39,300 nucleotides of DNA from a virus: the UHGV virus genome UHGV-0123126, one strand, 5' to 3'. The notes under the pieces were generated by a model. The model ran no database searches, was not told where the DNA came from, and saw only the letters and a program-made list of their open reading frames with translations. Below are positions 3,310 through 39,200 of the stretch, piece by piece. The position numbers and the translations under genes are program-made. The stretch's first letter is position 1. Each line of letters begins with the position of its first letter.

Positions 3310-3312
3310 TAC

Positions 3313-3513
3313 TTATTTCCCCTTTGCTTTGATTAATGAGTTGATAAACTTACGACCAGCAATAAGACCGATTACAGGAGCACCAAAACCAACGACAACT
3401 CCAAACATGACGGCTAAATCACTCTTGGTAGAAATCAGCGACGGAACCAGTAAACCGTAGATGAGAGCCACTGAAAGGCCTGTGGCTACTGCCAATAGAT
3501 AGATTTTGATCAT
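3313..3513 (-). CDS. Small two-helix membrane protein, co-operonic with the SPFH lipoprotein (possible NfeD-like partner)
   Basis: 66 aa, two hydrophobic segments; stop 4 nt upstream of the SPFH start. Confidence 0.5.
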   Translation of the reverse strand: MIKIYLLAVATGLSVALIYGLLVPSLISTKSDLAVMFGVVVGFGAPVIGLIAGRKFINSLIKAKGK

Positions 3514-3545
3514 GTGTTTTCCTATGTGGTTGTTATGTGAAAATA

Positions 3546-9050: not shown

Positions 9051-9275
9051 ATGAAGCAACATCCGAATAAGCATATTCAAGCAGCCATTGACTATGCATT
9101 AAGTAAAGGCTGGATCTGGGTAGCAGCTGGTGGTGCTGCACATTGTTTTTGCAGACTGCGATGCGGTAATCCAGAAGGTGAACACAAAACTCACCAAATG
9201 AGCGTATGGTCGACTCCGGGTAATCCCGAAAACCATGCCAAACAGATCAAACGAATGGTTGATCGTTGTAAATGA
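9051..9275 (+). CDS. Hypothetical Cys/His-rich small protein (74 aa)
   Basis: Strong SD (GGAGG) and promoter upstream; C..C..C and several His residues. Confidence 0.55.
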   Translation: MKQHPNKHIQAAIDYALSKGWIWVAAGGAAHCFCRLRCGNPEGEHKTHQMSVWSTPGNPENHAKQIKRMVDRCK

Positions 9276-9335: not shown

Positions 9336-9899
9336 ATGGCGCTTTATAACTTCACTCTGACGCTCTCAGGCGTATCGTATGAGACGGAAGGACTGGAAGA
9401 CGCGCTGTACCAAAACGGCTGTGACGATGCGCTAATTTGCGCATATGGAAACTCCGTCTATGTAGAATTTGACCGCGAAGCACAATCACTTGATGCAGCT
9501 ATCGCATCTGCGGTCGACAATATTGAATCAGCCGGTATCGGTGCAATTGTTGAATCCGTCGACTCGGCTCTTGTGGGCTTAAGCGATATCGCGGAACTGA
9601 CAGACCTGTCTCGCCAGGCAGTGGCGTTGCTCAAAGACGGTAAGCGCGGAAGCGGCGACTTCCCTTGCCCTGTACAACGCATAAAAGGCCAGTCTCCTCT
9701 CTGGGATTGGGCTGATGTGGCTGAATGGCTCATGAATAACGGACGACTTAAAGAGGGCGATCAAATTGTCCAAAATGCCCGAACTTTGAGTAAATGGAAT
9801 CTGGCGCTTCGAAACAGCGTCTCGAAAGATTTCAACGAAATAGAGCAAATTGCGGAGAAACTGATTAAACGCCGCAAAGATATTGCGAAATGCGCATAA
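9336..9899 (+). CDS. Hypothetical protein with a possible C-terminal helix-turn-helix (track ORF begins at an upstream TTG, 9300)
   Basis: ATG at 9336 preceded by AAGGA; HTH-like segment LSDIAELTDLSRQAVALL; followed by hairpin GCCCGCC-AATT-GGCGGGC at 9903..9922. Confidence 0.55.
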   Translation: MALYNFTLTLSGVSYETEGLEDALYQNGCDDALICAYGNSVYVEFDREAQSLDAAIASAVDNIESAGIGAIVESVDSALVGLSDIAELTDLSRQAVALLKDGKRGSGDFPCPVQRIKGQSPLWDWADVAEWLMNNGRLKEGDQIVQNARTLSKWNLALRNSVSKDFNEIEQIAEKLIKRRKDIAKCA

Positions 9900-10749: not shown

Positions 10750-13700
10750 ACTTATTTATTGTCTCCGCGATATCAGCCAGAATGGCCTCCAGTCGCTCTC
10801 CTTCTTCCGGTCGGAAGTACAGGATATTCGGGTTAAATCCGTAGAAGACGGTTGCATCAAGCTCTGGGAAGTACTCCTTACGACCAATCAGATCTGATGG
10901 TTTACTCTTATTGTTAAATAGTGCGGTTGAACGACTACCACACGTCAAAATGTAGGTTGGTCGTACAAGATTAATTTCTTCCCGCATAAAGTCTGTGAAC
11001 TGGCCTATCTCGTCTTTGGTATAGTCTTTCTCTTTGTCCTTAACCTTCTTACAAACACCCGTGACATAAAGATCGCCCATGCGCAGATCTCCAACTGTCA
11101 GTAGTTTTGCCTTAAAGTCGTCGTATCCGTTCTCCATGAAGTAGCCGGTACGAGCGTCATTGCCGTTCGCATTGTCCAGAATGATCATGATTTTGGGTTT
11201 AATACCAATAGTCGGGCGTATCAACTCCTCACCCAAGCCCATTTCAGCCGCCATACGTGTCATGAGTACGTTGATTTCGGCAGAACGCTTAGGATTCATT
11301 TCGAACGGACGTGATGCTTTAACAGCGTCAATGATGAGATTGCCCATCAGCTCAGCCTGGTCGCGCAGTCGTTCAGGATCAGTTGCTGGCAGACTGCCTG
11401 GCTCAATTGACGCAAAAGCCCCTACTTTATGAAGCGACTCGCGTACACGACTGTTACATGCACGCTTCTCGACCGCTTCATCGAATTGTGCCACTGACTC
11501 GAATTTGCCACCAACTTTCTCACGCGCACGCATAATTGCCTGACAACCATTTTCAGAACAGCCTTTCACAGCAGAGAATGGCGCATACAGTGCCTGACTG
11601 CCGTCTTCGAGTGTGCGGATCTCAATTCGGTTAGATGACACATTAACGTCTGGTGGCAATACGCGAATGCCATAGGTCAGCGCATCCTTCACCAGCCCCT
11701 GATGCTTATCCTCGCCCAGAATGGTGAGCGCAGCTGCGAAGAACTCAGCAGGGTAGTGCGTCTTTAGCCACATAGACTGATAACTGATTAAAGAATAAGA
11801 AACGGAGTGTGATTTATTGAACTGATAGGCTCCGTTTTTCTCAAATGCGGTCCAGATCTCCTTCGCTTTCATCTCTGATAGCCCTGGATGTGACGCTGTA
11901 ACGCGTACTGCGTTTATAGGTAGTTTTGCGCCGTGCTCAAGTGCCTCTTCGACAGTTTTCAGAGTTCCGTCTTCGCATTTAAAATGTTCCGCACGGTGAA
12001 TGCGCTGTGTAGTGCCATCTTCCAGCTCAACGTCTATCCAGCCAGCTTGAGCCTGAACGATGAACTTCTCGCCCATGCTCTTCATTTTTTCCATGTTCTT
12101 CTTACCGATTGCGGAACGCACAGCGTCAGCTTCAGCCATTGTGAAGCCGGCAAGCAATCGAGTCGCGTTCATCGTCTGTTCCTGATAGAGAATCACGCCA
12201 TTTGTTTCCGCGGTAAGTTCATCAAGAACGGGGTGTAATGATTCCGGCGTCATAAAGCCTTTGGCGACAGAAACATAGTCATCCAACATGCCTGATTGAA
12301 TTGGCCCCGGCCGGAAGAGCGCAGTTGTAGCGACGACCGTTTTAAAGCTCATTGGCTCAATTCCACCACCTAAATCTTTAAGCAGCTTGCGCATTGGGCC
12401 TGATTCAAGCTGGAAAACACCTTGAGTGTACCCAGCAGCAAAACCATCCAGCACCTTGCGATCTTCAAGAGAAATGGCATCAAGATTGATATCTTCACCT
12501 GTGTTCTCTTTTATGTAGCGTTTTGCACTATCGAGCAAATCGAGAGTTGCCAGGCCAAGCACGTCCAGCTTAATTAGGCCCATAGCCTCGCAGTAACGCT
12601 TGTCAAATGCGATACAACGCGCGTCACCACGGCGCTCAACCGGTGTACGTTCTGTCAGAGGAACACCTGCTACGATCATCCCTGCCGCATGTCTACCAAA
12701 GCCACGCATAAGGCTTTGTAACTTGCAGGCTGCATTGAATGCATCAGGATATTTTGTTGCGTATTTGTCGAGACTTGCCAGTTGTTCGCGCAGTTCTTCC
12801 AATGGAAGGCTATCATCCTCAGCGTTCTTCAGTTCTTTTGATACCGCCATATCTGCGGACTCCACACCATAAATACGAGCGGTGTCACGTAGTGCAGAGG
12901 CTGCGCCCAGGTAGGTGAAGTTCGGAATGCCTGCAACGTAATCTTCGCCGTAGCGTTCATTCAGATACTCGATCACCTCATGGCGACGTGCCTGGCTGAA
13001 GTCCAAATCCGCATCTGGCAAGTCGAGACGCTCAGGGTTGATGAAACGTTCAAACAGAAGACCGTGACGGATAGGGTCGACGTTGGTTATGCCTATGCAC
13101 CATGCCACCAAAGAGCCAGCGGAGGAACCACGACCAGGCCCGACAGGAATGCCAGTTTCACGGCTGTGATTCATCAGATCGCGTACCATCAGGAAGTAAC
13201 CACAAAATCCCAGGCGAGTAAGCGTGTCCATTTCGTACTTAAGTCGCTCAACATAAACCCTGTTCTCAGAAGCCGGTGGTGTGTATCCAAACTCTTTTGT
13301 GGTAAGACGTTTACGCAGCCCTGCAACAGCCAGTTTCATCAGCGTTGCAGGTTCGTCGTCTGCCATCTTGGGCAGTGCTGGTGGCAATTCATGCCAGCGC
13401 CATGTACAGGCTTCGATAATGGAGTCCTGCGTTGTTGAGGCCATTGCAGCTGTTACCGGCACATCCATGCGAACGGAGAAGGCTTTAAGCGCCTCAAGGA
13501 GATGGCGGCGACCATTGACGGCGTTATCTCGCTGGTGGGGTATACGCAGACGATGCGGCTGGTCGATTTTTATGTTGTTCGTAACCATGTGCGCAATGTC
13601 TTTAATGTCTGCATCGTCGATCGATTCGTAATAAGCGGGATAGAACGCTACTGGCTCTATTTTCAGTGCGCTGGCTACTTTCATCGCTCGGACGTTAATC

Positions 13701-20064: not shown

Positions 20065-20143
20065 TTGACGTTGTTTTTTGAATTTTAAGGGAAACGGGAG
20101 TGAGTTTGGTGGGAATAAAAACGGCTCCTGTGAGCCGTTAAAA

Positions 20144-20389
20144 TCAGAGGGTGCTGACGTATGCAGCCAGTTCTGTGTATCCGCCAATCGGTTGGCCATC
20201 GATCAGCACTTGGGGGATAGTCTCTACCGGTTTACCAACAATTTCACTTAGTTTTTCCTTGTCGATACCGGCAGTGGTGATGTCGATGTACTCATAATCA
20301 CCGTAGCCATGTCCCTTTAGTTGCTTCGCCAGCTCGACCGCACGTTTGCAGTATGAGCAGTTATCTCGTCCGTAGATAGTGATCGTCAT
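20144..20389 (-). CDS. Glutaredoxin-like protein (CxxC thioredoxin fold)
   Basis: MTITIYGRDNCSYCKRAVELAK...; GAGG SD before the internal ATG; track ORF extended upstream. Confidence 0.75.
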   Translation of the reverse strand: MTITIYGRDNCSYCKRAVELAKQLKGHGYGDYEYIDITTAGIDKEKLSEIVGKPVETIPQVLIDGQPIGGYTELAAYVSTL

Positions 20390-20563
20390 TGTTACCTCAT
20401 AGAATTGATATGCAACTTTACTTACAAAGAAGATAGGTGTGTGCATACTTATCTTTACAGTCTGCATTATAAAGCTATTAAAGCCTCGATCAATCTATTA
20501 ATTAAGGCATTGTTTGGTTAACATTAGCCTAATATTTTATAGTTAGTAGAGTGAAATACATAC

Positions 20564-21826
20564 ATGCCTTTTTTAATTTTCATTATTATACTACTGCTCA
20601 CCGTCATTTTTTGGGATTGGGTTGTTTTAAATGGTCAAACTGTTGGAACATTGGCTACAGCATTTGCTTTTATAGCAACAGCATGGAATGCCTACGAAGC
20701 GAGAAAAAGTGCAAAAGCAGCTTTTTCAGCCCTTCAATTAACAACTGAATCATTGTTCGAAATGCGAAAGAGTGCATTTAAACAATGGTTTGATTCCTTA
20801 TTAAATCAACATGATGAGTTATGTCTTCTTGCAAAACAAATTATCGATAAACACAAAATTAATTTAAACAGCGATGAGTTACATAGACTATATTATCCAT
20901 TGGTAAGACAGCATGAGGTAATACAGTATGTGAAGCATATTATTAATATATTTGAGTATGTGGATGGTTCATTTTATATTGATGGGGAATGTCTCAAGGA
21001 AAAAAGAGCGTATGTGTCACAATTAATTTTTAAAATCCCACCTCAGATGAAGTTGATCATTGCTATCTTTGGATTAAAAATCGATTATTGTGAACATATT
21101 AATTCGGAAAAACTGTGTTGTTTATTGAATAAATATGATTTTTTCAATGATGAAATATTTTTTGATGATGCTTATTCAAATATGCCTTATCTGGATACAT
21201 TCATAAACCTTAGATTCAACAAAATATTCAAATCTCGAATGATAAATTATTTTGATAATATCATTAAAAGTTATTATGTTCCATCGGACGTTAAAAGGGA
21301 CTGGATGTTTCGACACCCAAAGCTCGTACCGTCGGTTCTTATGAATTATAAAACTCCTTGTTCTCCTATAATTAATGATTACTTTGAGAAGTTGCCTTTA
21401 CATGTAAGAAACTACTTTGAGGAACTACTTAAAACCGCGAATGATAGAGTTACTCATTTTGACGTTTACATCCCACGCCTTATTGGTTGTTCAATCGTGC
21501 AACATTACGAAGATGTGCCTTCCGAAAAAAACAGGTTAAATGACAGGAATGATGTAATAGCTATGGCTGAAGATTACATCGAGAAAAGAAAATCTAATCA
21601 ACTAGATTACATACTTGAAGATATATACTTTAAGAGTGACGAAGATATAATCCCAGGCCACCATTTAATTGTGGCATTTGATGACTATGAATATAAATTA
21701 GCACTAATTAAGATAAATGAAAATAAAGATAACGATAATCTTTTAAATCGAATTTATACTGAATCCAGTAGCATGGTTAATGAATATAAGCGCGAAATAT
21801 TAAAATTGGGCGACTATGCAAAGTAA
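20564..21826 (+). CDS. AT-rich membrane-anchored protein of unknown function (two N-terminal TM helices, about 370-aa cytoplasmic domain); candidate abortive-infection/defence protein
   Basis: 420-aa ORF with GC content clearly lower than flanking DNA; only long plus-strand gene here; own terminator. Confidence 0.65.
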   Translation: MPFLIFIIILLLTVIFWDWVVLNGQTVGTLATAFAFIATAWNAYEARKSAKAAFSALQLTTESLFEMRKSAFKQWFDSLLNQHDELCLLAKQIIDKHKINLNSDELHRLYYPLVRQHEVIQYVKHIINIFEYVDGSFYIDGECLKEKRAYVSQLIFKIPPQMKLIIAIFGLKIDYCEHINSEKLCCLLNKYDFFNDEIFFDDAYSNMPYLDTFINLRFNKIFKSRMINYFDNIIKSYYVPSDVKRDWMFRHPKLVPSVLMNYKTPCSPIINDYFEKLPLHVRNYFEELLKTANDRVTHFDVYIPRLIGCSIVQHYEDVPSEKNRLNDRNDVIAMAEDYIEKRKSNQLDYILEDIYFKSDEDIIPGHHLIVAFDDYEYKLALIKINENKDNDNLLNRIYTESSSMVNEYKREILKLGDYAK

Positions 21827-21844
21827 ATTGCACTGTTCAACAAA

Positions 21845-21871
21845 AAAGGGGCCGAAGCCCCTTTGAATTTT
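21845..21871 (+). terminator. Rho-independent terminator (AAAGGGGC-CGAA-GCCCCTTT)
   Basis: GC-rich hairpin then TTTGAATTTT, 20 nt after the AT-rich gene stop. Confidence 0.55.
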
Positions 21872-21938
21872 GCGCTGAAAAAAGTGTTGCTAGGATGTTA
21901 GCAAGCTATGGTTAAGAACGTCTGCCGTAATTATCTAT

Positions 21939-22016
21939 CACAGCGTTGAGCGGTCTGGTTTATGTTAGCGGAGTCTTAATCGAGTTGATTAAAAGGCCAA
22001 ACCGCTCAACGCTGTG
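21939..22016. repeat. 16-bp perfect inverted repeat CACAGCGTTGAGCGGT / ACCGCTCAACGCTGTG, 46-bp spacer with nested palindrome
   Basis: Arms at 21939..21954 and 22001..22016; directly abuts the 3' end of tRNA-Ser. Confidence 0.6.
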
Positions 22017-22018
22017 TC

Positions 22019-22105
22019 TGGCGGAGAGTAATGGAATCGAACCATCATCGTTTGCACAATGGGACGGTTTTCAAGACCGCTTGAGCACCATGCTCCCTAC
22101 TCTCC
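22019..22105 (-). tRNA. tRNA-Ser (anticodon UGA), class II with long variable arm, CCA encoded
   Basis: Hand-folded: acceptor GGAGAGT/ACTCTCC, anticodon loop CTTGAAA, T-loop TTCGATT, discriminator G + CCA. Confidence 0.6.
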
Positions 22106-22322
22106 AATTGTTGTGGTTACCGGTACTGATCTCCGGCTTAGCGACCCCGGCTACTGACTGCATTGCAGTGTGTGAACTCGCCTCGTGTGTCGCTGGGGCA
22201 TTTCTTTCCGCGCATCAGTCTGCGCATCAACCACAACGAAAAGAGCACTGTATGACGTTTGCACGGACTTACGCTTAAAACAGGGCAGTCTCGGCGGTTT
22301 TCAATGCTCTTTCCTGTTGTGT

Positions 22323-22398
22323 TGGTGCCGGTTAACGGACTCGAACCGCTGACATCCTGCTTACAAGGCAGGCGCTCTACCAACTGAGCTAAACCGGC
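22323..22398 (-). tRNA. tRNA-Thr (anticodon UGU), CCA encoded
   Basis: Hand-folded: acceptor GCCGGTT/AACCGGC, D-arm GCTC..GAGC, anticodon stem CCTGC/GCAGG with loop CTTGTAA, T-loop TTCGAGT. Confidence 0.8.
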
Positions 22399-22402
22399 AA
22401 TT

Positions 22403-22489
22403 TGGTGGGGAGTGATGGAGTCGAACCACCCGAGTCGCCATGACAGTAGATTTACAGTCTACACCGCTACCTCTACGGACTAACTCCCC
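22403..22489 (-). tRNA. tRNA-Tyr (anticodon GUA), long variable arm, CCA encoded
   Basis: Hand-folded: acceptor GGGGAGT/ACTCCCC, anticodon stem GTAGA/TCTAC with loop CTGTAAA, T-loop TTCGACT. Confidence 0.8.
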
Positions 22490-22494
22490 TAAAT

Positions 22495-22569
22495 TGGCGA
22501 TGGTGGGTGGATTCGAACCACCGACCAGTTGGTTAACAGCCAACTGCTCTACCGCTGAGCTACACCATC
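22495..22569 (-). tRNA. tRNA-Asn (anticodon GUU), CCA encoded
   Basis: Hand-folded: acceptor GATGGTG/CACCATC, anticodon stem GTTGG/CCAAC with loop CTGTTAA, T-arm GGTGG-TTCGAAT-CCACC. Confidence 0.8.
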
Positions 22570-26859: not shown

Positions 26860-26979
26860 CTTTTCGGCGATTGGGTATGCTGACAGTTAAGCTAAATTGA
26901 AGTAATCTTACCAATCGGTGATTACAAAGCCTTACACCGAGTAGCCACAACCACCTAACCATCTTGTGAAAATCCAAAA

Positions 26980-28017
26980 ATGAAACATTTCAAACCAATA
27001 TCTTTCTTTATGTTGTCGCTATTACTTGTTTCGGGGAGTGCACATGCCTATGAAATACAAAAGCTGATCGATGCGGCAAAAGCAGGCGACGTTGAGTCAC
27101 AGAGTGCTTTAGGTATCGACTATATGAAAGGTATTCATGGTGTCGAAAAAAACTACGATGAAGCCAGAAAATGGCTTGAACTGGCGACTTCTAAGGGGAA
27201 CAAAGAAGCGTTTAATGCTCTAGGTATAATGTATGCCCTTGGGTATGGGGTTGATAAAAATTTCAAAAAGGCTGAGGAACTCTTTAAGAAAGCTGGTGAT
27301 GCAGCTGGAGGCAACTCTTATCACAATCTGGGTGTTATTTATCATAAAGGACTTGCGGGTAAGAAAGACCAAAAACTTTCCCTGAAATATCACAAACTTG
27401 CAGTAGAGGCTGGCGACCCTGAATCTGCGTCATATCTAGGACAGTTATATTATGTTGGCGCAGGCGTGCCAAAAAGCTACAAAAAGGCAATAGAGTATTA
27501 TAAAAAAGGAATCGAACTAGGCAGTGCATCTGCATTGGCGAATCTTGGCATTATGTATGAGTATGGTGAAGGGGTTAAAAAAGATTATAAAAAAGCAGCT
27601 GAGCTTTATCAGGCAGCTTGCGATAAAGAAGATAAAAATGGCTGTGATTACATTGCAGAACTAAAAGAAAGCGGTAAATACCAACCATCAGCAGCAAGAT
27701 CTAAAGCAAAATCCTCCACTCAGCGACTTATTGCTAAATCCATTGATAAAGGCGTTAACGCAACATTTACCTGGCAGGGTGATGATGCCACCTTCACCGC
27801 TAATGATGGCAAAATTGACTGCACTTTCCTAAAGGATTTTTCAGAGAAAGGAGGCAATCTGGCTACCTCGTTTGTTTGCACCGATAACGTTCAAATCATC
27901 CTGAAGCAATTCAGAGATACCAAGAATGCCTACCTCGCGGTAATGACTGACAACTTCAACACAGAAGTTAAATCATTTTCGGTCAATGTTTACGTGACTA
28001 ATACTGGTTCAAACTAG
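26980..28017 (+). CDS. Secreted Sel1-like repeat (TPR-like) protein with N-terminal signal peptide
   Basis: Signal peptide ending SGSAHA; repeated about 36-aa units with A-x-x-G-[VI]-x-Y and K-A-x-E-[LW]-[YF]-K-K-A spacing. Confidence 0.8.
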   Translation: MKHFKPISFFMLSLLLVSGSAHAYEIQKLIDAAKAGDVESQSALGIDYMKGIHGVEKNYDEARKWLELATSKGNKEAFNALGIMYALGYGVDKNFKKAEELFKKAGDAAGGNSYHNLGVIYHKGLAGKKDQKLSLKYHKLAVEAGDPESASYLGQLYYVGAGVPKSYKKAIEYYKKGIELGSASALANLGIMYEYGEGVKKDYKKAAELYQAACDKEDKNGCDYIAELKESGKYQPSAARSKAKSSTQRLIAKSIDKGVNATFTWQGDDATFTANDGKIDCTFLKDFSEKGGNLATSFVCTDNVQIILKQFRDTKNAYLAVMTDNFNTEVKSFSVNVYVTNTGSN

Positions 28018-29190
28018 TGCTGCAATGCCTTTCACCTTGCTTAAGAGTTCAAGCTGTCGTGAATAAGGTTTTGCGCAATAGTAGGCTTTGATAATCTGCC
28101 CCGGTGTCGCATCGCCGGGGTCGAGTCCTTCCTCGCCCAAACACGCAACTTTGACATTAAGGCCAATACTTGTGAGTCGCCTAGCTGCGGCCATAGTGTT
28201 GCGTATAGCTTGCTTTTCACTATCCCACATCATGATCACATTACGTAATCCACGCGCCTTGAGCGTCAGGAACGCGCCCAGCTGATCTTCTGCATCCTGA
28301 GTGGTGTTGCCAGATAGATGCATCCCGAACGTTCCTATTGGTTCCACGTAATCACGTAATGTTTCTTCGTCAAAAATAGCTCGTTTGACCCCCATAACAT
28401 CGAACGCCCCCTCACAGACAACTACCGTCTGTTTGCCGACTGCATTATGGCCGTTGTAGAGAAACTTACCTGAAGCTGGAAGCTGCACAGGAAAGAGGTA
28501 GCGACGTTCTGCTGTACCGGTAATGTCTCGTCCCTGAAATGTCTTCATTACCCCATCCAGATCGTAAACCGGTATCAGTATTCGCATATCGAATATCTGT
28601 CCTTTAACCTGATCTGTATACGGATCTACATAGGCGTGCTTGCCTTCGACGCAGTATCGTAGGTCAAAATACTTTGCCATTTCAGGCGATATGTTTCGTT
28701 CAACCAGATAGTCTGGAAGACGACCATCTATAGGAAGCTCGTAATGACGAGGGAGTGCAACTGGCCCCTCTAACTCGACTGTGCTTGCAAGCACTAGCTC
28801 TTCTTTCTTTGGTGCCCACCCCTGGGAAAGAAGGGCGTTCTGCACATATTCCTCGAACTGTCGTCGTGATTTGCCGCTGTAGTGCTTGAGGAAGACCAGC
28901 TTATTGAACTGAATCTCTTCGGGATGATCACCAGCGAAGCATTTACCGACGCCACTGGTCAGATTGAAATATACCTTCCAGTTGGAGCTGCCACATACCG
29001 GACACTCCTTGATATTCACTTCACGACCGCGAGTACTCACGCCTCCACGTCGATAAACGATACCTTCAGTATCCAACCATTGTTCAAAATCTAATTCGGT
29101 AATTAGCTCTTTCAGCTCGCTCACGATAATTCCACTTTTAACAGGCAATATTGTGACCAACCTAAATGTTGATATAACATAAAGGCTCAT
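28009..29190 (-). CDS. DNA primase (zinc-finger plus TOPRIM); start uncertain (track ORF begins at GTG 29262)
   Basis: Zinc ribbon CPVCGSSNW...KCFAG; TOPRIM-like VVVCEGAFDVMGV; ATG at 29188..29190 avoids the hairpin at 29241..29258. Confidence 0.75.
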   Translation of the reverse strand: MSLYVISTFRLVTILPVKSGIIVSELKELITELDFEQWLDTEGIVYRRGGVSTRGREVNIKECPVCGSSNWKVYFNLTSGVGKCFAGDHPEEIQFNKLVFLKHYSGKSRRQFEEYVQNALLSQGWAPKKEELVLASTVELEGPVALPRHYELPIDGRLPDYLVERNISPEMAKYFDLRYCVEGKHAYVDPYTDQVKGQIFDMRILIPVYDLDGVMKTFQGRDITGTAERRYLFPVQLPASGKFLYNGHNAVGKQTVVVCEGAFDVMGVKRAIFDEETLRDYVEPIGTFGMHLSGNTTQDAEDQLGAFLTLKARGLRNVIMMWDSEKQAIRNTMAAARRLTSIGLNVKVACLGEEGLDPGDATPGQIIKAYYCAKPYSRQLELLSKVKGIAALV

Positions 29191-31396: not shown

Positions 31397-31678
31397 GTGG
31401 CTCACCTGGTAGGTAGTTACTTACTTATCACAATGAACGGATGATAGCGACTGGTGGCAGTTTTTGGAAGTGGAAACGGAAGGGAGTTGTTCTGGTGGTG
31501 TCTTTTAAAAGACCTGCTTCCGTATATATTTAATAAGTTACTTATTATTTATATATACAGAAGCAGGCATAACTTGTCGTCTTAGACGCCCAGAAGCTCT
31601 ACACTTTGAGCCTGTTAAATTGATTAAAAACTTATGTGTAAAATAGAACGCATTAGTCAGTAGCTAAGAGATGCAATA

Positions 31679-32446
31679 ATGGACGATTTATCGGTATACG
31701 CGAGATCATTGGATAAGGCTAAATACTATGTTTACTGTCTCTATGATACAGAAGACAAGATGAAAAGACCGTTTTACATAGGAAAAGGCAAATCGACTCG
31801 TTGTCTCGATCACATCAAGTATCCCGATGACTCTCCCAAATCCATGCGGATCAAAGAACTTTTGGCTAATAAAAAATTAGGCATAGATATTCTTCGTCAT
31901 GGTATGGATGAAACCACAGCCAAACTTGTTGAGGCGACATGCATCGACCTTATGGGGGTCGGAGAGCTTACGAATAAGGTACGAGGAAGTGGTTCCATGA
32001 TGGGCAGAATATCACTGGACGCCTACCATCACTTAGTGCTGCAAGAGGAAACTGAAATTGCTCCTGAGCACGCCGGTCTTGCCTTCCTGCTAAACAGCAC
32101 CTACAAGTCAGGAATGTCCGCTCTGGCATTATATGAAGCTACGCGTGGCGTATGGGCAAAGGTTCCAAGAGACGAGAATCTCAAATATGCCTACGCTACA
32201 TATGGTGGGCTAATAATGGAAGTTTATCAGATTGAATGCTGGGTCAAAGCCGGTTCTCAGCAGTACTTTACAAGGGATATAGCTCTTGGCCCCGACACAA
32301 AACGTTATGAATTTGTTGGCAGAATAGCCGATGAGCATATTAGAAAACTGTATGTAGGCAAATTAATCAAGAAGCCACCAAGCTACGGTAGCCCTTTTGT
32401 GAAGGTTGGGGTGGTTAGGACTGAACATAGTGTTAGCGCGGCATAA
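31679..32446 (+). CDS. GIY-YIG nuclease-domain protein with uncharacterised C-terminal domain
   Basis: N-terminal YYVYCLYD...PFYIGKGKSTR fits GIY-YIG; isolated plus-strand gene with strong terminator. Confidence 0.7.
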   Translation: MDDLSVYARSLDKAKYYVYCLYDTEDKMKRPFYIGKGKSTRCLDHIKYPDDSPKSMRIKELLANKKLGIDILRHGMDETTAKLVEATCIDLMGVGELTNKVRGSGSMMGRISLDAYHHLVLQEETEIAPEHAGLAFLLNSTYKSGMSALALYEATRGVWAKVPRDENLKYAYATYGGLIMEVYQIECWVKAGSQQYFTRDIALGPDTKRYEFVGRIADEHIRKLYVGKLIKKPPSYGSPFVKVGVVRTEHSVSAA

Positions 32447-32460
32447 AGCTGACACTGTAG

Positions 32461-32500
32461 TCATGCATTGGCGCAATGTACGCGCCAATGCATGATTTTT
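32461..32500. terminator. Strong rho-independent terminator: 14-bp stem TCATGCATTGGCGC / GCGCCAATGCATGA, 7-nt loop, TTTTT
   Basis: Perfect stem, T-run on plus strand after the GIY-YIG gene; also abuts the parG-like 3' end. Confidence 0.7.
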
Positions 32501-32858
32501 AACCTTTCTTCATCAACTCTCGTTTGATTTCATCGGTACGCATCGTGACATCGGCAGCGGTGATCGCCTCATTCAATTTCACGATGTCCTCGATTTCCTG
32601 CGGTGACTTCTCTGCCAGATGGAAAATGGCTGCTCGAATCACGTCAGAACGAGTGAACTTCTCGAAGCGAGGGATGAACTTCATCATCTCCAGCAGTTCG
32701 AAGTATTCGTCCTCCAGTGACATTGTGCGGCTTTTAATTTTCTCTTTGCCACGAGTCGGGCGTCCCTGTGGTCTGACTGGTTGGCGCAAAGGAGTTGTGT
32801 TCTTAGCCGGTGCATCAGGCTCTTTGCGCTTTGCTAGGTCACCCATTTTCATGGACAT
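32499..32858 (-). CDS. Small ParG-like partition/centromere-binding protein (basic N-terminal tail, possible ribbon-helix-helix)
   Basis: 119 aa, Lys/Arg/Pro-rich N-terminus then structured C-terminus; start overlaps parA stop (TAATG). Confidence 0.55.
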   Translation of the reverse strand: MSMKMGDLAKRKEPDAPAKNTTPLRQPVRPQGRPTRGKEKIKSRTMSLEDEYFELLEMMKFIPRFEKFTRSDVIRAAIFHLAEKSPQEIEDIVKLNEAITAADVTMRTDEIKRELMKKG

Positions 32859-33526
32859 TATTCTTCTTCCTCCAGACTCAACAGATAATCTACAAATTCT
32901 TCAAACTCGGCTTCCGCCTTTTTGTCGCGCTCGCTACCGGTCATTTCAAAGATAGAACGACCAGACTCTTCCGCATCATCATAGACGTTGCGGTTATATA
33001 GATTGACTGGCGCAGACTCGATGCCGAACGTCTCGACAATCTCTTTAGCCGCCAGAATGCGAGACACTTGTGATGGCAAAGCCGGGCACTGGTTCATGAC
33101 CGCGCGGACCTTCACTTTATCGTTTACATTGCGAACATTGTCGATAATAGGATCGATGTCACGTAAAGATTTCAAATCACGACGCTTAGGACGCAGCGGG
33201 ATAATGATAACGTCAGCCATCAGCATCGCTTGTCGCTGAATTTCGGAGTCGAAGCCACCAGCATCTACCACTACAAACTCAGCTCTACCCTGAAGCGATT
33301 TTAGGTGCTTAATGATGTCATCCTGAACGTATGCAAAAGGAATCAGCTCAAGGTCTTCGTTCTGTCGACGGTCTTCACACCAGCTCGTTGTCGTGCGCTG
33401 AATATCTATATCGGTAATATAAACCTTCTTCTTCTTTTTGACTTTCAGGCAAACGGCAATTTGCTGGGCAACGGTGGATTTGCCAGGCCCGCCCTTTGTG
33501 CCGCCAACCACAAAGATCTTGGTCAT
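32858..33526 (-). CDS. parA: ParA/Soj-family partition ATPase (deviant Walker A)
   Basis: VVGGTKGGPGKST deviant Walker A near N-terminus; 222 aa; followed by small basic protein. Confidence 0.85.
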   Translation of the reverse strand: MTKIFVVGGTKGGPGKSTVAQQIAVCLKVKKKKKVYITDIDIQRTTTSWCEDRRQNEDLELIPFAYVQDDIIKHLKSLQGRAEFVVVDAGGFDSEIQRQAMLMADVIIIPLRPKRRDLKSLRDIDPIIDNVRNVNDKVKVRAVMNQCPALPSQVSRILAAKEIVETFGIESAPVNLYNRNVYDDAEESGRSIFEMTGSERDKKAEAEFEEFVDYLLSLEEEE

Positions 33527-33844
33527 TGGAGAGTTCCCTTTGCGTATATAATTATCGTCTGAAACAACTTGTTTTCTTATATGTGATATAGCCTAAATGC
33601 CTACGGCTGCGGTGTAAAGGTTAAATGGTAGGTTGTGATTAACAATTGGCAATCATAGCTTGTATTTGTCTGTTGAAAAAAGTAACAATGACCTCTATAT
33701 TACAAGTACGGTGATATGCCGTACACAATTTGATAATGCACACGTAATGGGCTATAGCCTTTTAAAGTAATTTTTGAGTCGAAAACTCAGTTTGAACAGA
33801 GGAGATTGATGGCCTTCCTACATCACGGCCATCAGGAGGAATAC

Positions 33845-34114
33845 ATGTCAGCACTAAAAAAGCAGCGCATCGATTTGAGATTAACCGATGACGATAAAAG
33901 CATCATCGAGGAAGCTGCCGCAATGTCTAACCAGAGCATTACTCAGTTTATGGTTAGCAGTGCATCTGAACGTGCCGTGAAAGTTATAGAGCAACACCGT
34001 AGACTAGTTCTGAATGAAGAATCCTGGAATCTGGTTATGGACGCTATAAGCAATCCTCCGGCACCGAACGACAAGCTGAAACGAGCTGCTGATCGTCTGA
34101 AAAGCATGGAGTAG
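33845..34114 (+). CDS. TacA-type (DUF1778-like) antitoxin of a GNAT toxin-antitoxin pair
   Basis: 89 aa from ATG 33845 with AGGAGGA SD; MSALKKQRIDLRLTDDDKSIIEEAA...; 7 nt before the GNAT toxin gene. Confidence 0.8.
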   Translation: MSALKKQRIDLRLTDDDKSIIEEAAAMSNQSITQFMVSSASERAVKVIEQHRRLVLNEESWNLVMDAISNPPAPNDKLKRAADRLKSME

Positions 34115-34121
34115 TTTACTC

Positions 34122-34643
34122 GTGAGCAATACAACGATAGAGATTTTCTCTGGAGAGAAAGATTATGATCTAAACGGTTTTGATTGCGGCGAAGAGTCAC
34201 TAAACGCCTTTTTAGCCAACCACTTAAAAAGGCAGCATGAGGGAAAAATTCTTCGTGCTTATGTGCTTTGCACTCAAGAAGAAAGGCCAAAAGTGTTAGG
34301 ATATTACACTTTGTCAGGTAGTTGTTTTGAAAAGGAGTCCTTACCTTCAAGAAGCAAACAAAAGAAGGTTCCTTATCGGAATGTTCCAAGTGTTACTTTG
34401 GGTAGGCTGGCTTTGGACAAGTCCCTTCAAGGTCAAGGATTTGGCTCAATGCTTGTAACACATGCAATGCGCGTTGTGTACAATGCATCTCTTGCTGTAG
34501 GCATTCATGGACTTTTCGTTGAGGCGTTAAATGACAAAGCCAAGGCGTTTTATAAAAGTTTAGGCTTTATCCAGCTGGTTGGTAACAACGAGCGTTCTTT
34601 GTTCTATCCTACAAAATCTATCGAAAAATTGTTCGAAGAATAA
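34122..34643 (+). CDS. GNAT-family acetyltransferase toxin (TacT/AtaT/KacT-like)
   Basis: 173 aa, GTG start; FDCGEESLNAFL, ILRAYVLC, YYTLSGSCF, QGQGFGSMLV match AtaT-type toxins as recalled from memory. Confidence 0.85.
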   Translation: MSNTTIEIFSGEKDYDLNGFDCGEESLNAFLANHLKRQHEGKILRAYVLCTQEERPKVLGYYTLSGSCFEKESLPSRSKQKKVPYRNVPSVTLGRLALDKSLQGQGFGSMLVTHAMRVVYNASLAVGIHGLFVEALNDKAKAFYKSLGFIQLVGNNERSLFYPTKSIEKLFEE

Positions 34644-34675
34644 TGTGTTCCCCTCATTTGAGGGGAACTTCGACA

Positions 34676-34891
34676 TCACCAACCACAAACCCTCTCTCCC
34701 ATCGTATTGTGAAAAAGGATTTGGCGTTCGGTTTCTTCAGTCATTACATCATTATTGCTGATATAGATAGGCTCAGCCCCATCGCAGAACAACACGCTGG
34801 CTGTTTGTGGTTTAATGACGCACCCACTTATCATACAACTCACGATGAACGGCAGAAGCATCTTTCTGACGTATTTTACTGCTCGTCTCAT
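34676..34891 (-). CDS. Putative o-spanin (outer-membrane lipoprotein, Rz1-like), overlapping the i-spanin
   Basis: Lipobox ISGC after hydrophobic segment; embedded in an alternate frame overlapping the 3' end of 34812..35063. Confidence 0.5.
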   Translation of the reverse strand: MRRAVKYVRKMLLPFIVSCMISGCVIKPQTASVLFCDGAEPIYISNNDVMTEETERQILFHNTMGERVCGW

Positions 34892-35063
34892 TCACCACTT
34901 TCACTGTGTTTTGAAGTCGTTTTCTGTCTTCCTGTTTTGCCTTCTCTTCCATTGCTCGTCGCGCCGCATTCCCGCCCATCGTGTAAGCGCCGACAAGAAC
35001 GAAAAGAACGGCAGCCAGCGTAATCAAAGCAACTTTTAGCTTTGTCATCAGGCTGCCTAGCAT
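34812..35063 (-). CDS. Putative i-spanin (Rz-like: N-terminal TM helix plus charged coiled-coil)
   Basis: 83 aa; TM segment VALITLAAVLFVLVGAY then Lys/Glu/Arg-rich region. Confidence 0.5.
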   Translation of the reverse strand: MLGSLMTKLKVALITLAAVLFVLVGAYTMGGNAARRAMEEKAKQEDRKRLQNTVKVVNETSSKIRQKDASAVHRELYDKWVRH

Positions 35064-35064
35064 A

Positions 35065-35757
35065 TTAGACCATCCCTTTCTGGTGTTTTCTTACCTGCGA
35101 CCAGGCAATGAATCCTGCCACAACAATAGTGGCAATACCGAAGATGATGCGTACTGTATCCCCGCTAGAGATATGACCTTGTGCTTTATCCATAGCAGCG
35201 GAAACCTGCGGCATAACATCGGCCAGCTGCGCCAGACCAATACCTGCTGTAACAGTTGCGCCTGCAGTTTCTTTAGTTACAGGAACAGCCTTCACGGTTT
35301 TCACCGGCTTAACAACGCCAGCTCGACGCAGACCTTCCTCAATAACTTCTGCCGCATACCAGGTGTTCAGCGTTTTTAGCGGGCCTCGGCCATTCTCGTG
35401 GCGAATGATTGCCTCAACCAAAGGTCGAAGGATGTCGTAATCATGCAGATCGATGATCATGTCTGCGGTTACACCAACGGCTTTAGACACCTCATTAATG
35501 TAGGCGTCAGTATTGTTTTCATTCGGCGGTGCCCAGCGTTCAATAACTTCACGAATGGTATCGATACTTGTGCCGTCTTTTGCGCGACGTTTATCGTGGT
35601 AGGTAATTAGAGTCACCGCCAGCGCACGAATCCCCCAAACAGGGTCTTTAAACGTGCAAAAGCGCGGTTCGTCTGGATTCGCAACCAGACCTTGCCACGG
35701 TGATCCTTTATCAAGATTACCGGGGTTATTATTACGAATGCCTCTCGGAGTCTTCAT
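35065..35757 (-). CDS. Putative endolysin-like protein with C-terminal TM anchor (catalytic class not recognised)
   Basis: Position between membrane protein and spanins; motif PRGIRNNNPGNL; ATG at 35755..35757 has AGGAG SD (track ORF extends to 35784). Confidence 0.4.
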   Translation of the reverse strand: MKTPRGIRNNNPGNLDKGSPWQGLVANPDEPRFCTFKDPVWGIRALAVTLITYHDKRRAKDGTSIDTIREVIERWAPPNENNTDAYINEVSKAVGVTADMIIDLHDYDILRPLVEAIIRHENGRGPLKTLNTWYAAEVIEEGLRRAGVVKPVKTVKAVPVTKETAGATVTAGIGLAQLADVMPQVSAAMDKAQGHISSGDTVRIIFGIATIVVAGFIAWSQVRKHQKGMV

Positions 35758-35770
35758 CCTTGATCTCCTG

Positions 35771-36094
35771 TTATTGCAGTCCACTTTTTACGCCATACGC
35801 GGCTAACCCCAAAAGCAGTGCGGTAATAATGAACGACGTTATTTTAGAAACAATGCCGCCAAAGAACCCACTTGAGATGGAATCTAACCGGTTAAGGAGT
35901 TTGTCCAGATTGGAGTGTTGAATACTATGTTGCGCCGGGGTCATATCACCAAAGTAGGTTTTCAGCTGATCATTGACCTCCTGGCCAATTTCTTCACGTA
36001 GCTCTTTACCTAATTTGCCAACAACCTCCCGAGCAACGATCGCGGCAATACGCTCAACTTGCTCTGTTGTAACGCCCGCCATCTCGTTCGACAT
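35771..36094 (-). CDS. C-terminally anchored membrane protein, possible holin-like lysis component
   Basis: Single TM helix near C-terminus; GGAGG SD before the internal ATG at 36092..36094 (track ORF starts at 36106). Confidence 0.35.
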   Translation of the reverse strand: MSNEMAGVTTEQVERIAAIVAREVVGKLGKELREEIGQEVNDQLKTYFGDMTPAQHSIQHSNLDKLLNRLDSISSGFFGGIVSKITSFIITALLLGLAAYGVKSGLQ

Positions 36095-36296
36095 GTTTTC
36101 CTCCATGAAAAGTCAAATCGGGATGGCGGATTTATATCACACTTCTCCTTTCAATTATAGGTATATACTTACCTATCTATGTATATACCGTTTAACGGCT
36201 GTTCAAATTCGTATCTAGTAACTCACTAATATATCCCTATGATTGCGGCTGTGAGATCGCATTTTAAACCTCACAGCCATATAAATAATGTCTAAA

Positions 36297-39200
36297 TCAG
36301 TTACTTGTTGCCCCAACAGTACCTGCAAATTTCAGCCATTGACCTGACGGACTTCTATTACTACGGTAGTGATAAACGAGGATTGCGTTTGTAACTCCAC
36401 CGTAGTCAGCTTTATGTGACGTTGTTAAACGAATTGTATAATCACCGTTAGGTAGATTAAAAACTTCGATTATAGATTCTGCTAATTCTACAGCACCAAA
36501 TCCCGTTATATTGTTGATACTGCCAGCATTGAATCCCATAGCATCGCCAAAGCCAATCCAATAACTTTTGCTAAACGCCCCATTTGATTTTAGGTGGCTA
36601 ATGAATGTGGACAAACTCATGCCCATATCCCCACCTGAAACAGAGGAAGTTCGCACAGTCATGCTTGGAAGAGCACTGCTCTTCACATAGGAACTTAGAA
36701 GGTTTGTTACCTCTGTTTTCGTATAGGCATTAAGGTTAGCCGCAGTCAAAGTAATATCGGCAGAGCCATCAAACGCCACACCAGCAATTTTCCTTGCTGT
36801 CTGCAATTTTGTGGCGGTTGCGGCATTACCAGTAGTGTTCTGGTTCCCATCTGCATTCACACCTGGGATGCTGTCTTTTTTAGTATATATCTGAGTCCAG
36901 TCCTCTTCGAACCCATAGCCATCACGTGATGAACGGTAATACAATCCACCATTTTTATAATGCGCTCGGATTTGGAGAGTCCGACAACTACCTACGCCTG
37001 TATAAAAATTTGCAACGATATAAGAATCCCCGGAGCGTGTAACATTATACGCACCTGATTCGGCATTCCACGGGACCGCACCACTAGCATCGGCATAAGT
37101 TCCAGTAGCGCGTCGAGCAAAAGCAGATACATTTGCAGCTGTTAGTGTTATATCAGCAGAACCATCAAAAGCCACGCCACTTATTTTTCTGGCAGTTTGT
37201 AACTTTGTAGCCGTAGATGCATTACCGTTCAAACTACCATTGATGCCGCCAGTAACATTGAGTCCATTACCAATGGACACAGCACCGCTGGTATTGTTAA
37301 TTGTAATCGGTCGCAAACCGTTCCATGAACCTAATGTGTCTCCTGATGCTGTTAGCATGAAATATGTGTTCGACCCATCATTACGGATAAAGAACCCAAA
37401 GCTACCGTAAGCAATGCGGAAACCATTTGCATATTTTGAAACGATCTCACCAGAAGACGTTAACCCTCCAGATAATGTGCCACCTGAAAGCGGTAATGCG
37501 CCGACATCCGTGGCGGTCGGTTTAATGTGCGAACTGTAAATGACATATACCGTTCCATCAGTAAGACCAGTTGGTTTATTCGCTGTATAAGTTGGTGATG
37601 TATGAATCGTTACGCTGGCGTTACTGGTATAATCCCACTGAATATTAACACCTGTGGCGTAATTACCTATTTCAACATAAACATCATAGGTATCACCGGA
37701 TGTATTCACCCATGCAAAATTAGTAAATCCAACCGATGTCCGTCGCCATAATGCACCAGTAATACCCTTTGGATTTCCATTTCCGGCACGCAGAACCAGC
37801 TCAGAGATGCCTGCTTGATGCGGGGAGCCAACGTTATACCCTGCACCACCAATCAGGCTTATGTAAACCACGGAACTGGCCTGTGGCATGGTTACAGTTG
37901 CCAGCTTGAACCATCCGGCACCACCAATAAAAGACATTGTTGCTGAGTTGATCGTGCCTATAGACCTTGGAGTTAGCTCAATGTTTTTAGAACCGTCAAA
38001 CGACACCCCATTAATAGTACGCGCAGTCTGCAACTTCGTAGCAGTAGCCGCATTACCTGTTGTATTCTGATTACCAGTCGTATTAACACCTGGCAAATTA
38101 ATATTTGCAGTACCATCAAAGCTCACGCCGCCGATAGTTCTTGCCGTCTGTAGTTTTGTAGCAGTTGCAGCATTACCAGTGGTGTTCTGATTACCCGTAG
38201 TGTTTACACCTGGAAGGTTAATATTTGCAGAACCGTCGAAAACAACTCCACCGATAGATCTTGCCGTCTGTAATTTCGTTGCTGTAGCAGCATTTCCTGA
38301 AAGACTTGAAATAAATGGATGTGAACAGTAATAACCTCGTCCATTTTTAAAGTCCAAAATTATCTGTGCATTCGTACTTTCTGATAAAGGATCAGTTGCC
38401 CCCCACTTATAAGTGGTTTGACCAACTGCATAATCAGCCGTTGGAACAATCACATTTAATCCTTCCTCAGCAAAAATCTGGATAGGGAATGCTCTTGTCT
38501 CAACGTAAAATACACTACACAAATCATCATCTTTCACGCTTGCGATAATCGAGTGTATAGATCGTTCAACGGTTGAATATATTGAGAAAAAACCAACAGC
38601 ATATGAACCGCGATCAGACCAACCGCCCGGCATAACAAAACCATTAAACTCACAATTATTCATAGCGTATCCGCCAGCTGAGGAATAAGTGGTGATAACC
38701 ACTCGTGAGGCTAATTCATCTGTGCCACCACCAGTTCGGCGAAAGACTACAGGATACCACTTACCGCTTACTGCATTTGCAGGAGCAGAGAAAGTGTATT
38801 TTCGCATCCCCTTTTTCTTATCCACTTCACCTTTGCTGTAAACATTAATGTTATTCAGGAAGCGGCCCTTGTCGGGGATATCAGCACCATTCTGATCCTT
38901 CTGTAGTCGTTTTTCAGCATTATCATATGCGGTCTTAACTGCTTTTGGTGTCGCGGCTAAAGATTCACTGGTGCTGTCGACAGCACTGCTAAGTTTCACA
39001 ACACCTTTGGTGGTAAGGCTTGCATCTTCCATCGCAACTGCACCGGCAATCTCTTCAGCACGATCAGCAGCAGCTTCCGCACGGGTCGCAGCGGATTCAG
39101 CAGCAGTTTTGCTCTGAGATGCTGCCGTCGCACTGCCTGCCGCCTCTGTTGCTTTCGTGGATGCTGTCGTGGCGCTGCCCTTCGCTGCGGACGCTTGTCT

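Follow-up and report, generated by a model that had tools for sequence, protein, structure and literature searches.

The two genes at positions 33845-34643 of the window (the whole 39,300-nt stretch of viral DNA analysed here) almost certainly form an intact type II toxin-antitoxin operon of the GNAT/DUF1778 kind, which on sequence comparison falls into the AtaRT/KacAT branch. The DNA of the window is that of an E. coli phage-plasmid of the SSU5 group. We lean towards stabilisation of the plasmid prophage as the probable biological role of the module, and our confidence in the explanation as a whole (identity of the module, its working and its stabilising role) is high. The module has already been annotated and published, and only its promoter-operator map is new. 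Together with that map, the additions of the present analysis are evidence for purifying selection and for intramodule recombination, the cassette boundaries and the distribution figures. The finding has little weight as a discovery because the family is well understood both mechanistically and structurally.

Gene layout and membership of the AtaRT/KacAT branch

Two same-strand open reading frames fill 33845-34643, the antitoxin first and the toxin second. The antitoxin gene (33845-34114, + strand; ATG at 33845, TAG at 34112-34114) encodes an 89-aa DUF1778 protein of the AtaR/KacA type. An AGGAGG sequence at 33834-33839 precedes its start codon with a spacer of 5 nt. The toxin gene (34122-34643, + strand; GTG at 34122, stop at 34641-34643) encodes a 173-aa GNAT protein, a predicted aminoacyl-tRNA N-acetyltransferase. 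The gap between the genes is 7 nt long (34115-34121). Both starts are placed as here by the NCBI PGAP annotation of near-identical plasmids (91.7-96.9% nucleotide identity over the module). A longer antitoxin, beginning either at ATG 33809 (36 nt earlier, the start given in the record of phage Cyrano) or at TTG 33806, was considered and rejected. No homologue supports it, the solved and annotated homologues all begin with MSA(L/V)KKQ, the equivalent of the PGAP start is 33845, where there is a strong Shine-Dalgarno sequence, and the codon at 33809 lies inside a hairpin arm.

The antitoxin matches the Pfam family PF08681 (TacA1, formerly DUF1778) with E=5.7e-26 over 79 of the 80 profile positions. 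Its closest solved relative is KacA (E=6.6e-42, 80% identical); the match to AtaR has E=1.3e-40 and 76% identity, and both alignments are gapless. By comparison with these relatives, the protein would bind DNA through an N-terminal ribbon-helix-helix part and the toxin through a C-terminal one. In KacA, residues R8, D10 and R12 read the DNA, and M65, I68, Q70 and R77 take part in the neutralisation of KacT (PMC6698736). The three DNA-reading residues are retained in the window antitoxin. M65 and I68 are also identical to those of KacA, and positions 70 and 77 carry N and K, the residues that AtaR, the neutraliser of AtaT, has there.

The toxin exceeds the gathering scores of four GNAT families of Pfam. 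In a search against PDB chains it matched AtaT with E=1.4e-79 (269 bits) and KacT with E=3.9e-75 (255 bits), whereas all the remaining solved GNAT toxins scored 81 bits or less. In particular, 5FVJ, which we take to be Salmonella TacT, scored 47.7 bits. The identity is 70% to AtaT (120/172, residues 1-172) and 67% to KacT (114/169, KacT residues 4-172), again in gapless alignments. AtaT and KacT are themselves mutually 67% identical (PMC6698736). This value is similar to those of the window toxin, so the module appears to be a third lineage of that branch. By bit scores and identity we assign it to the AtaRT/KacAT branch, which is clade A of Bikmetov et al. (2022, PMC9177977), and not to the TacT branch.

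The clade A toxins AtaT, KacT and AcaT acetylate glycyl-tRNA and hydrophobic aminoacyl-tRNAs in vivo, and the TacT group is clade D, specific for Gly-tRNA (PMC9177977). From the membership in clade A, a broad range of targets (Gly and hydrophobic aminoacyl-tRNAs) is thus predicted instead of Gly-tRNA alone. In other words, labelling the toxin AtaT/KacT-like instead of TacT-like changes its predicted targets.

The residues required for activity are largely in place. The acetyl-CoA motif Q103-G-Q-G106-F-G108 (family pattern Q/R-x-x-G-x-G/A) is present, and G108 (acetyl-CoA) and Y144 (catalysis) align gaplessly to G108 and Y144 of AtaT, the latter being Y145 in KacT. According to Yashiro et al. 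(PMC7595197), the change G108D in AtaT abolishes acetyl-CoA binding and Y144F removes the catalytic residue; mutating either position inactivates the toxin (PMC7595197). The same work found that F30, H34, R37, R40, R71, S76-K82, Y85 and R95 of AtaT are required for toxicity via tRNA binding and that its amino-acid pocket is lined by A26, L27 and L136 (PMC7595197). At 16 of the 21 AtaT positions singled out in that study, the window toxin has the identical residue; these include G108, Y144, Y85, R95 and L27. The changes R71K and K77R are conservative. The toxin also differs from AtaT by A26S in the amino-acid pocket and by R40E and N41G in the tRNA-binding helix, and its target range may for this reason be shifted.

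The original prediction, made from the letters of the DNA, described a DUF1778 antitoxin followed after 7 nt by a GNAT toxin with conserved motifs. Its gene order and spacing proved right, with exact coordinates, starts and stops. Both protein families were recovered through Pfam matches and through the solved homologues AtaT/KacT and KacA/AtaR, and G108, Y144 and the pattern Q103-x-x-G106-x-G108 are retained. The alignment check that it proposed for the acetyl-CoA-binding residues, made here with AtaT and KacT, finds G108 and also the catalytic Y144 present. Its assignment to the TacA/TacT type holds for the superfamily (DUF1778 and GNAT) but not for the branch, which is AtaRT/KacAT (269 bits to AtaT against 47.7 bits to 5FVJ).

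Predicted promoter and operator, leader and probable terminator

A consensus scan predicts a sigma-70-like promoter at 33673-33701 on the + strand: TTGAAA and TATATT separated by 17 nt, with 10 of 12 consensus matches. It is followed by a predicted operator, the palindrome GTACGG-TGATATG-CCGTAC at 33706-33724, whose first base is 4 nt past the -10 hexamer and which resembles the KacAT operator. The 27-bp KacAT operator crystallised in 5ZGN is AAATGTACGGTTATTAACCGTACATGA (PMC6698736). The arms of the window palindrome and their spacing equal those of the crystal oligonucleotide. The KacAT operator spans the transcription start (PMC6698736), which agrees with the position of the window palindrome 4 nt past the promoter-like site. 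We predict that this palindrome is the operator read by R8, D10 and R12 of the antitoxin.

The pattern GTACGG-N7-CCGTAC occurs once in the 39.3 kb of the window, where 0.02 occurrences would be expected by chance. It is common to four modules with otherwise little similarity upstream, namely those of the window, of chromosomal ataRT, of an E. coli plasmid and of an Enterobacter SSU5-like plasmid. When nine modules were aligned, including chromosomal ataRT of O157:H7, the arms were invariant and the spacer was variable. An alignment of 11 modules on the operator, from at least four genomic contexts, has a TTGA/TTGT -35 element and a TAnnnT-type -10 element at constant distances; in it, too, the arms are unchanged and the 7-nt spacer differs. 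One IMG/VR copy carries a single G-to-A change in one operator arm. With the promoter and the operator placed to the base, reporter and stability work becomes straightforward.

The leader is about 137 nt long and exceeds that of chromosomal ataRT. It contains a perfect 8-bp inverted repeat, TGATGGCC-N12-GGCCATCA, found by a repeat search at 33807-33834 (+ strand). The repeat ends at the Shine-Dalgarno sequence, and its 5' arm covers the ATG at 33809. A search for structured RNA in the leader was negative, the fold of 33708-33860 being no better than that of shuffled sequences (z=-0.4), and a scan of the leader gave no convincing small open reading frame and no tandem repeats. At the other end of the module, a terminator scan found a perfect 9-bp GC-rich hairpin, GTTCCCCTC-ATTT-GAGGGGAAC, at 34647-34668, between the convergent toxin and Rz1 genes. 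The scan called it on the - strand; the + strand is without a T run. The hairpin is likely a terminator.

Host element, variable slot and distribution of the cassette

The original prediction placed the module on a phage-like replicon beside partition genes, and this agrees with the comparison of genomes. The window and Cyrano, an SSU5-like phage-plasmid, are collinear in blocks that are 96.6-98.7% identical, and ParA lies 318 bp upstream of the module in the divergent orientation. Cyrano is an Escherichia phage (OV696614) and is the same element as plasmid pLF82 of adherent-invasive E. coli LF82. Segment 33600-34900 of the window is 100% identical to it. We considered whether the window is Cyrano itself and rejected this. 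The two form a mosaic in which several replaced segments lie between the similar blocks, and the HicA coordinates of Cyrano, when mapped onto the window, run into stop codons. Since the window is a mosaic relative of Cyrano, the data on Cyrano apply to the identical cassette and not to the whole element. In PLSDB, no plasmid covers more than 90% of 14301-39300 and none is identical to the window.

Misson et al. (2023, PMC9928086) reported that in the Cyrano lysogen the toxin is transcribed 35-fold and the antitoxin 60-fold above the local prophage background. Cyrano makes virions and is present at about 5.5 copies per cell (PMC9928086). Its record labels the two genes “putative antitoxin” and “KacT Acetyltransferase-type toxin”. 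The RefSeq labels are “type II toxin-antitoxin system TacA family antitoxin” or “DUF1778 domain-containing protein” for the first gene and “GNAT family N-acetyltransferase” for the second. Pfeifer et al. mention toxin-antitoxin systems among the genes that vary within the SSU5 group (PMC7969092). A 2024 review that used TADB 3.0 described pLF82 as being without toxin-antitoxin systems (PMC11205521). We reject this statement as wrong: the identical cassette is an intact system of the AtaRT/KacAT type, as judged by its sequence.

On one side of the module, the divergent partition operon (32499-33526, - strand) comprises ParA (32858-33526) and a downstream gene of 119 aa (32499-32858). ParA matches the NCBIfam model ParA_partition with E=1.9e-33 and 115.7 bits, which is under the curated cut-off of 180 for this model; the Pfam matches to MipZ, AAA_31, CbiA and ParA all exceed their gathering scores. 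On the other side is the convergent lysis cassette of Rz1, Rz, endolysin and holin (34676-36106, - strand), identified from the annotation of the Cyrano record. The partition block is 87% conserved with SSU5 and the lysis block 82%. In a blastn comparison of the window with the SSU5 locus, homology covers 32501-33633 and 34684-36144 and is interrupted between them. The interrupting segment, 33634-34683 (+ strand), is the whole cassette: 1050 bp with the promoter, the operator, the leader, both genes and the terminator hairpin. In SSU5 the slot is 1426 bp long and holds two unrelated genes on the other strand, SSU5_031 and SSU5_032. These have no Pfam or PADLOC match and belong only to PHROG families of unknown function.

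A query with the two flanks matches 737 PLSDB plasmids of Klebsiella, Escherichia, Enterobacter, Salmonella, Citrobacter and Cronobacter. Among these flank-sharing plasmids the slot is occupied by the GNAT cassette (span of about 3250 bp), by the SSU5-type pair (about 3634 bp) or by a shorter insert (about 3054 bp). Relatives from Enterobacter and Citrobacter also have a GNAT/DUF1778 pair in this slot, but one of more divergent sequence; the E. hormaechei pair shares 63% (toxin) and 87% (antitoxin) identity with that of the window.

At a threshold of at least 90% nucleotide identity, the cassette was found in 145 PLSDB plasmids, 140 of which are from Escherichia and 131 are predicted to be non-mobilizable. 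With the same threshold it is present in 152 of 5,426 complete E. coli genomes (about 2.8%), always on a plasmid and with no chromosomal copies, and in 28 IMG/VR contigs, in all 28 of which it lies between parA and the lysis genes. The E. coli carriers come from many animal and environmental sources. A module with 70% identity was found on an unrelated 90-kb viral contig, between ParA/ParG and ParM/StbB partition genes. Chromosomal ataRT, with about 66% nucleotide identity to the module, occurs on 1,626 chromosomes of E. coli, a share of about 30%. By a count of records among the 5,426 complete genomes, at least 71 strains, of which E. coli 4/0 is an example, have both the cassette and chromosomal ataRT. 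The LF82 chromosome has no ataRT at the usual livJ-panM site.

The module is well conserved. In four allelic variants on other E. coli plasmids (three from the module search, with 91.7-96.9% nucleotide identity, and a fourth found through the flanks), neither frame is broken, and the 7-nt gap and the GTG start are kept. The frames are likewise unbroken in three modules at a greater distance, from Enterobacter, Citrobacter and an E. coli plasmid. [quoted passage not shown] In addition, the toxin gene appears to have been reshuffled by recombination that begins exactly at its first codons.

Proposed working, biological role and nearest known systems

By homology, the toxin would acetylate charged tRNAs and thereby stop translation. 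The C-terminal half of the antitoxin is expected to wrap the toxin, blocking both acetyl-CoA binding and toxin dimerisation. In a complex that would be a hexamer of two toxins and four antitoxins, N-terminal ribbon-helix-helix dimers of the antitoxin would occupy GTACGG-N7-CCGTAC. This palindrome overlaps the predicted transcription start, and the operon should therefore repress itself. An excess of toxin would de-repress the operon, as in KacAT (PMC6698736). We picture the cassette as a swappable 1-kb unit placed by the partition operon of a phage-plasmid that is kept at few copies per cell. If the plasmid prophage is lost, a presumably unstable antitoxin would lead to post-segregational killing or growth arrest.

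Of the two roles named in the original prediction, addiction module and defence system, the first suits the context. Three observations favour stabilisation of the plasmid prophage, which we consider on balance the probable role. The module is exclusively plasmid-borne in the complete E. coli genomes, partition genes are adjacent to it on two unrelated backbones, and LF82 is without ataRT at livJ-panM, a potential source of rescuing antitoxin. The element has its own partition system and several copies per cell, which counts against this role. As SSU5 and many of its relatives are without the cassette, it is not essential for maintenance.

Other roles have been weighed against the same evidence. 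The toxin could act stochastically or under stress and give rise to non-growing cells that tolerate antibiotics and macrophages, to the benefit of a pathogenic host such as LF82. A passage of PMC11205521 describes TacT as promoting non-growing Salmonella in macrophages, a passage of PMC6698736 links KacAT to drug tolerance, and the identical cassette is expressed on pLF82/Cyrano of a macrophage-surviving strain. We nevertheless regard this role as unlikely: four other adherent-invasive strains are without a Cyrano-like plasmid (PMC12931692), and the carriers come from a variety of animal and environmental sources. Such a role is compatible with stabilisation of the prophage. Anti-phage abortive infection is the less probable of these two alternatives and in our opinion quite unlikely. 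Here an invading phage would use up or dislodge the antitoxin; the toxin set free in this way would halt translation before the invader has finished its cycle and protect the lysogens and the phage-plasmid. Several type II toxin-antitoxin systems that hit tRNA or translation do act against phages, phage-plasmids do carry defence systems (bioRxiv 10.1101/2025.09.12.675607), the cassette is transcribed in the lysogen, and a variable slot with alternative two-gene occupants is a pattern known from defence hotspots. Nevertheless, neither protein matches PADLOC-DB v2 at E<=0.01, full-text literature searches found no GNAT/DUF1778 pair described as active against phages, and a DefenseFinder survey of 1,227 SSU5-group contigs names other systems but not this one (bioRxiv 10.1101/2025.09.12.675607). 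The recurrent adjacency to partition genes also suits maintenance better than defence.

The occupancy of the slot between parA and the lysis genes suggests a further idea, to which we give little credence: the slot might be an “exclusion/competition” locus, whose exchangeable cassettes, the GNAT pair or the two SSU5 genes, would do more than prevent loss and settle which related phage-plasmids or incoming phages share a cell. The antitoxin and the operator are almost invariant and are common to chromosomal ataRT, and on this reading cross-repression or cross-neutralisation between the chromosomal and phage copies could occur. A further part of the idea concerns the tRNA-Tyr encoded by the element, in whose acceptor stem the G4G5G6 run required by AtaT is interrupted; this tRNA could be a partial shield of phage translation against AtaT-type toxins. 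The least probable alternative is a decayed, non-toxic remnant, i.e., an ordinary acetyltransferase or an inactive toxin that hitch-hikes on the element. Nothing in particular speaks for it, except that the TADB 3.0-based review gives pLF82 no toxin-antitoxin systems (PMC11205521). However, the frames are intact in all variants examined, the catalytic and acetyl-CoA residues are retained, dN/dS is 0.04-0.13, and the operator arms stay invariant while the spacer drifts.

The cassette and chromosomal ataRT have the operator and the residues that read it in common, and the strains that carry both are therefore natural material for work on toxin-antitoxin cross-talk.

Among known systems, phd-doc of the phage-plasmid P1 offers an analogy of role. 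As the module would be, it is a type II pair of a plasmid prophage that is directed at translation and keeps the prophage stable. Doc is a kinase of the Fic fold whose substrate is EF-Tu, and the proteins and the chemistry of phd-doc are unrelated to those of the module. Conditional cooperativity has been described for phd-doc (PMC6698736, PMC7969092). The TacA-TacT, TacAT2 and TacAT3 systems of Salmonella Typhimurium belong to the same superfamily as the module and share its architecture, in which the gene of a DUF1778/RHH antitoxin precedes that of a GNAT toxin acetylating aminoacyl-tRNA, but they are distant from it (47.7-81 bits, compared to 269 bits for AtaT). KacA-KacT of Klebsiella pneumoniae HS11286 (5ZGN with operator DNA, 5XUN) is much closer. 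It has the operator arms and spacing found here, and by homology its complex of two toxins and four antitoxins and its conditional cooperativity are expected for the module too. It differs in species and replicon, in the sequence of the operator spacer and at antitoxin positions 70 and 77, which are Q and R in KacA and N and K here. AtaR-AtaT of E. coli O157:H7 (6GTS, 6AJM, 6AJN, 7CHD), encoded on the chromosome between livJ and panM, has the same gene order, a gap of 6 nt versus 7 nt here, and the same operator arms GTACGG/CCGTAC with a 7-nt spacer just past the -10 hexamer. In contrast to this chromosomal system, to which it has about 66% nucleotide identity, the module is carried by a phage-plasmid, its operator is placed 139 nt ahead of the start codon (45 nt in ataRT), and its toxin gene starts with GTG.

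Recombination and related modules on other replicons

The cassette is internally mosaic by recombination, as is seen when window 34100-34950 is compared with two E. coli plasmids (L008 and L009) and with the IMG/VR loci L027-L040. Near-identity of both plasmids to the window spans the region from parA up to and including the antitoxin gene and is lost where the toxin coding sequence begins, within its first codons; in L009 the divergence of the toxin region is patchy. The dS relative to the window is 0 for the antitoxin and 0.16-0.5 for the toxin. Among the IMG/VR loci, identity of the flanks is uncoupled from identity of the cassette.

A GNAT/DUF1778 module that is 70% identical to that of the window, with the same operator, was found at positions 2728-3522 of a 90-kb viral contig unrelated to the window (L042, IMG/VR UViG_3300025735_000294; compare locus L041). 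Its neighbours encode a fused Dam/Dcm-type methyltransferase, ParA with ParG, and ParM with a StbB-like protein. This is a second instance of a GNAT/DUF1778 module adjoining partition genes.

In an SSU5-like plasmid of E. hormaechei (L006, approximately 1400-1530), the leader that separates the operator from the start codon of the antitoxin gene contains tandem repeats, AAAACTGAAAATCG about four times and then CTGAAAA about five times, whereas the leader of the E. coli cassette has no tandem repeats of this type. They may represent iterons or a site used in partition. In a C. freundii plasmid (L010) the distance from the operator to the start is longer (241 nt), which may point to a similar leader.

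Gene labels and divergence from Cyrano

A 119-aa gene (window 32499-32858, minus strand) lies directly downstream of parA and overlaps it by ATGA. Its homologue in the related phage-plasmid Cyrano is labelled "RelE/ParE putative toxin" and was tallied as a toxin by Misson et al. in 2023 (PMC9928086). Searches of the 119-aa protein against Pfam, NCBIfam, PADLOC and PDB gave no hit to RelE/ParE, and its sole match is PHROG 5111, a family with no assigned function. The position of the gene right after parA makes it more probable that the product binds the centromere as the partner of ParA than that it is a RelE/ParE toxin.

Two other Cyrano labels concern toxin-antitoxin and lysis genes. The pair annotated there as HicA toxin and HicB antitoxin corresponds to window 9051-9275 and 9336-9899 (plus strand); we regard this label as only putative, since neither window protein matches Pfam at E ≤ 0.01. 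The product of the gene called endolysin in Cyrano (window 35065-35784, minus strand) likewise gave zero matches in a Pfam search. It has a C-terminal hydrophobic stretch (…IIFGIATIVVAGFIAWSQV…), and its homologues are named "membrane protein" in RefSeq.

Window segments 11821-12071, 20082-22493, 26868-28050, 31577-32501 and 37508-38935 are replaced or strongly diverged, because megablast gave no match of at least 300 bp to the corresponding Cyrano stretch. They take in part of the tail-fibre gene, which is an ORF of 911 aa in the window (36297-39032) and a CDS of 4026 nt in Cyrano.

Comparison with AtaT and chromosomal ataRT

The window carries four genes for tRNAs (Ser-UGA, Thr-UGU, Tyr-GUA and Asn-GUU; 22019-22569, minus strand), whereas the Cyrano record has only Asn, Thr and Ser. 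The acceptor stem of the additional tRNA-Tyr (22403-22489, minus strand) is GGGGAGU/ACUCCCC. Efficient acetylation by AtaT requires a G4G5G6:C67C68C69 run in the tRNA (PMC7595197). Since Tyr-tRNA is among the AtaT targets and A5-U68 breaks this run, toxins of the AtaT type might acetylate the phage-plasmid tRNA-Tyr less well.

Matches to clade-A modules (the AtaRT/KacAT branch) in complete E. coli genomes comprise 1,925 records from 1,854 genomes. Therefore at least 71 of these genomes have two such modules, for example the phage-plasmid cassette and chromosomal ataRT; strain 4/0 has one on plasmid NZ_CP023851.1 and one on chromosome NZ_CP023849.1. Transcriptional cross-talk between the cassette and chromosomal ataRT is plausible, because their operator arms and the DNA-reading residues of their antitoxins are identical.
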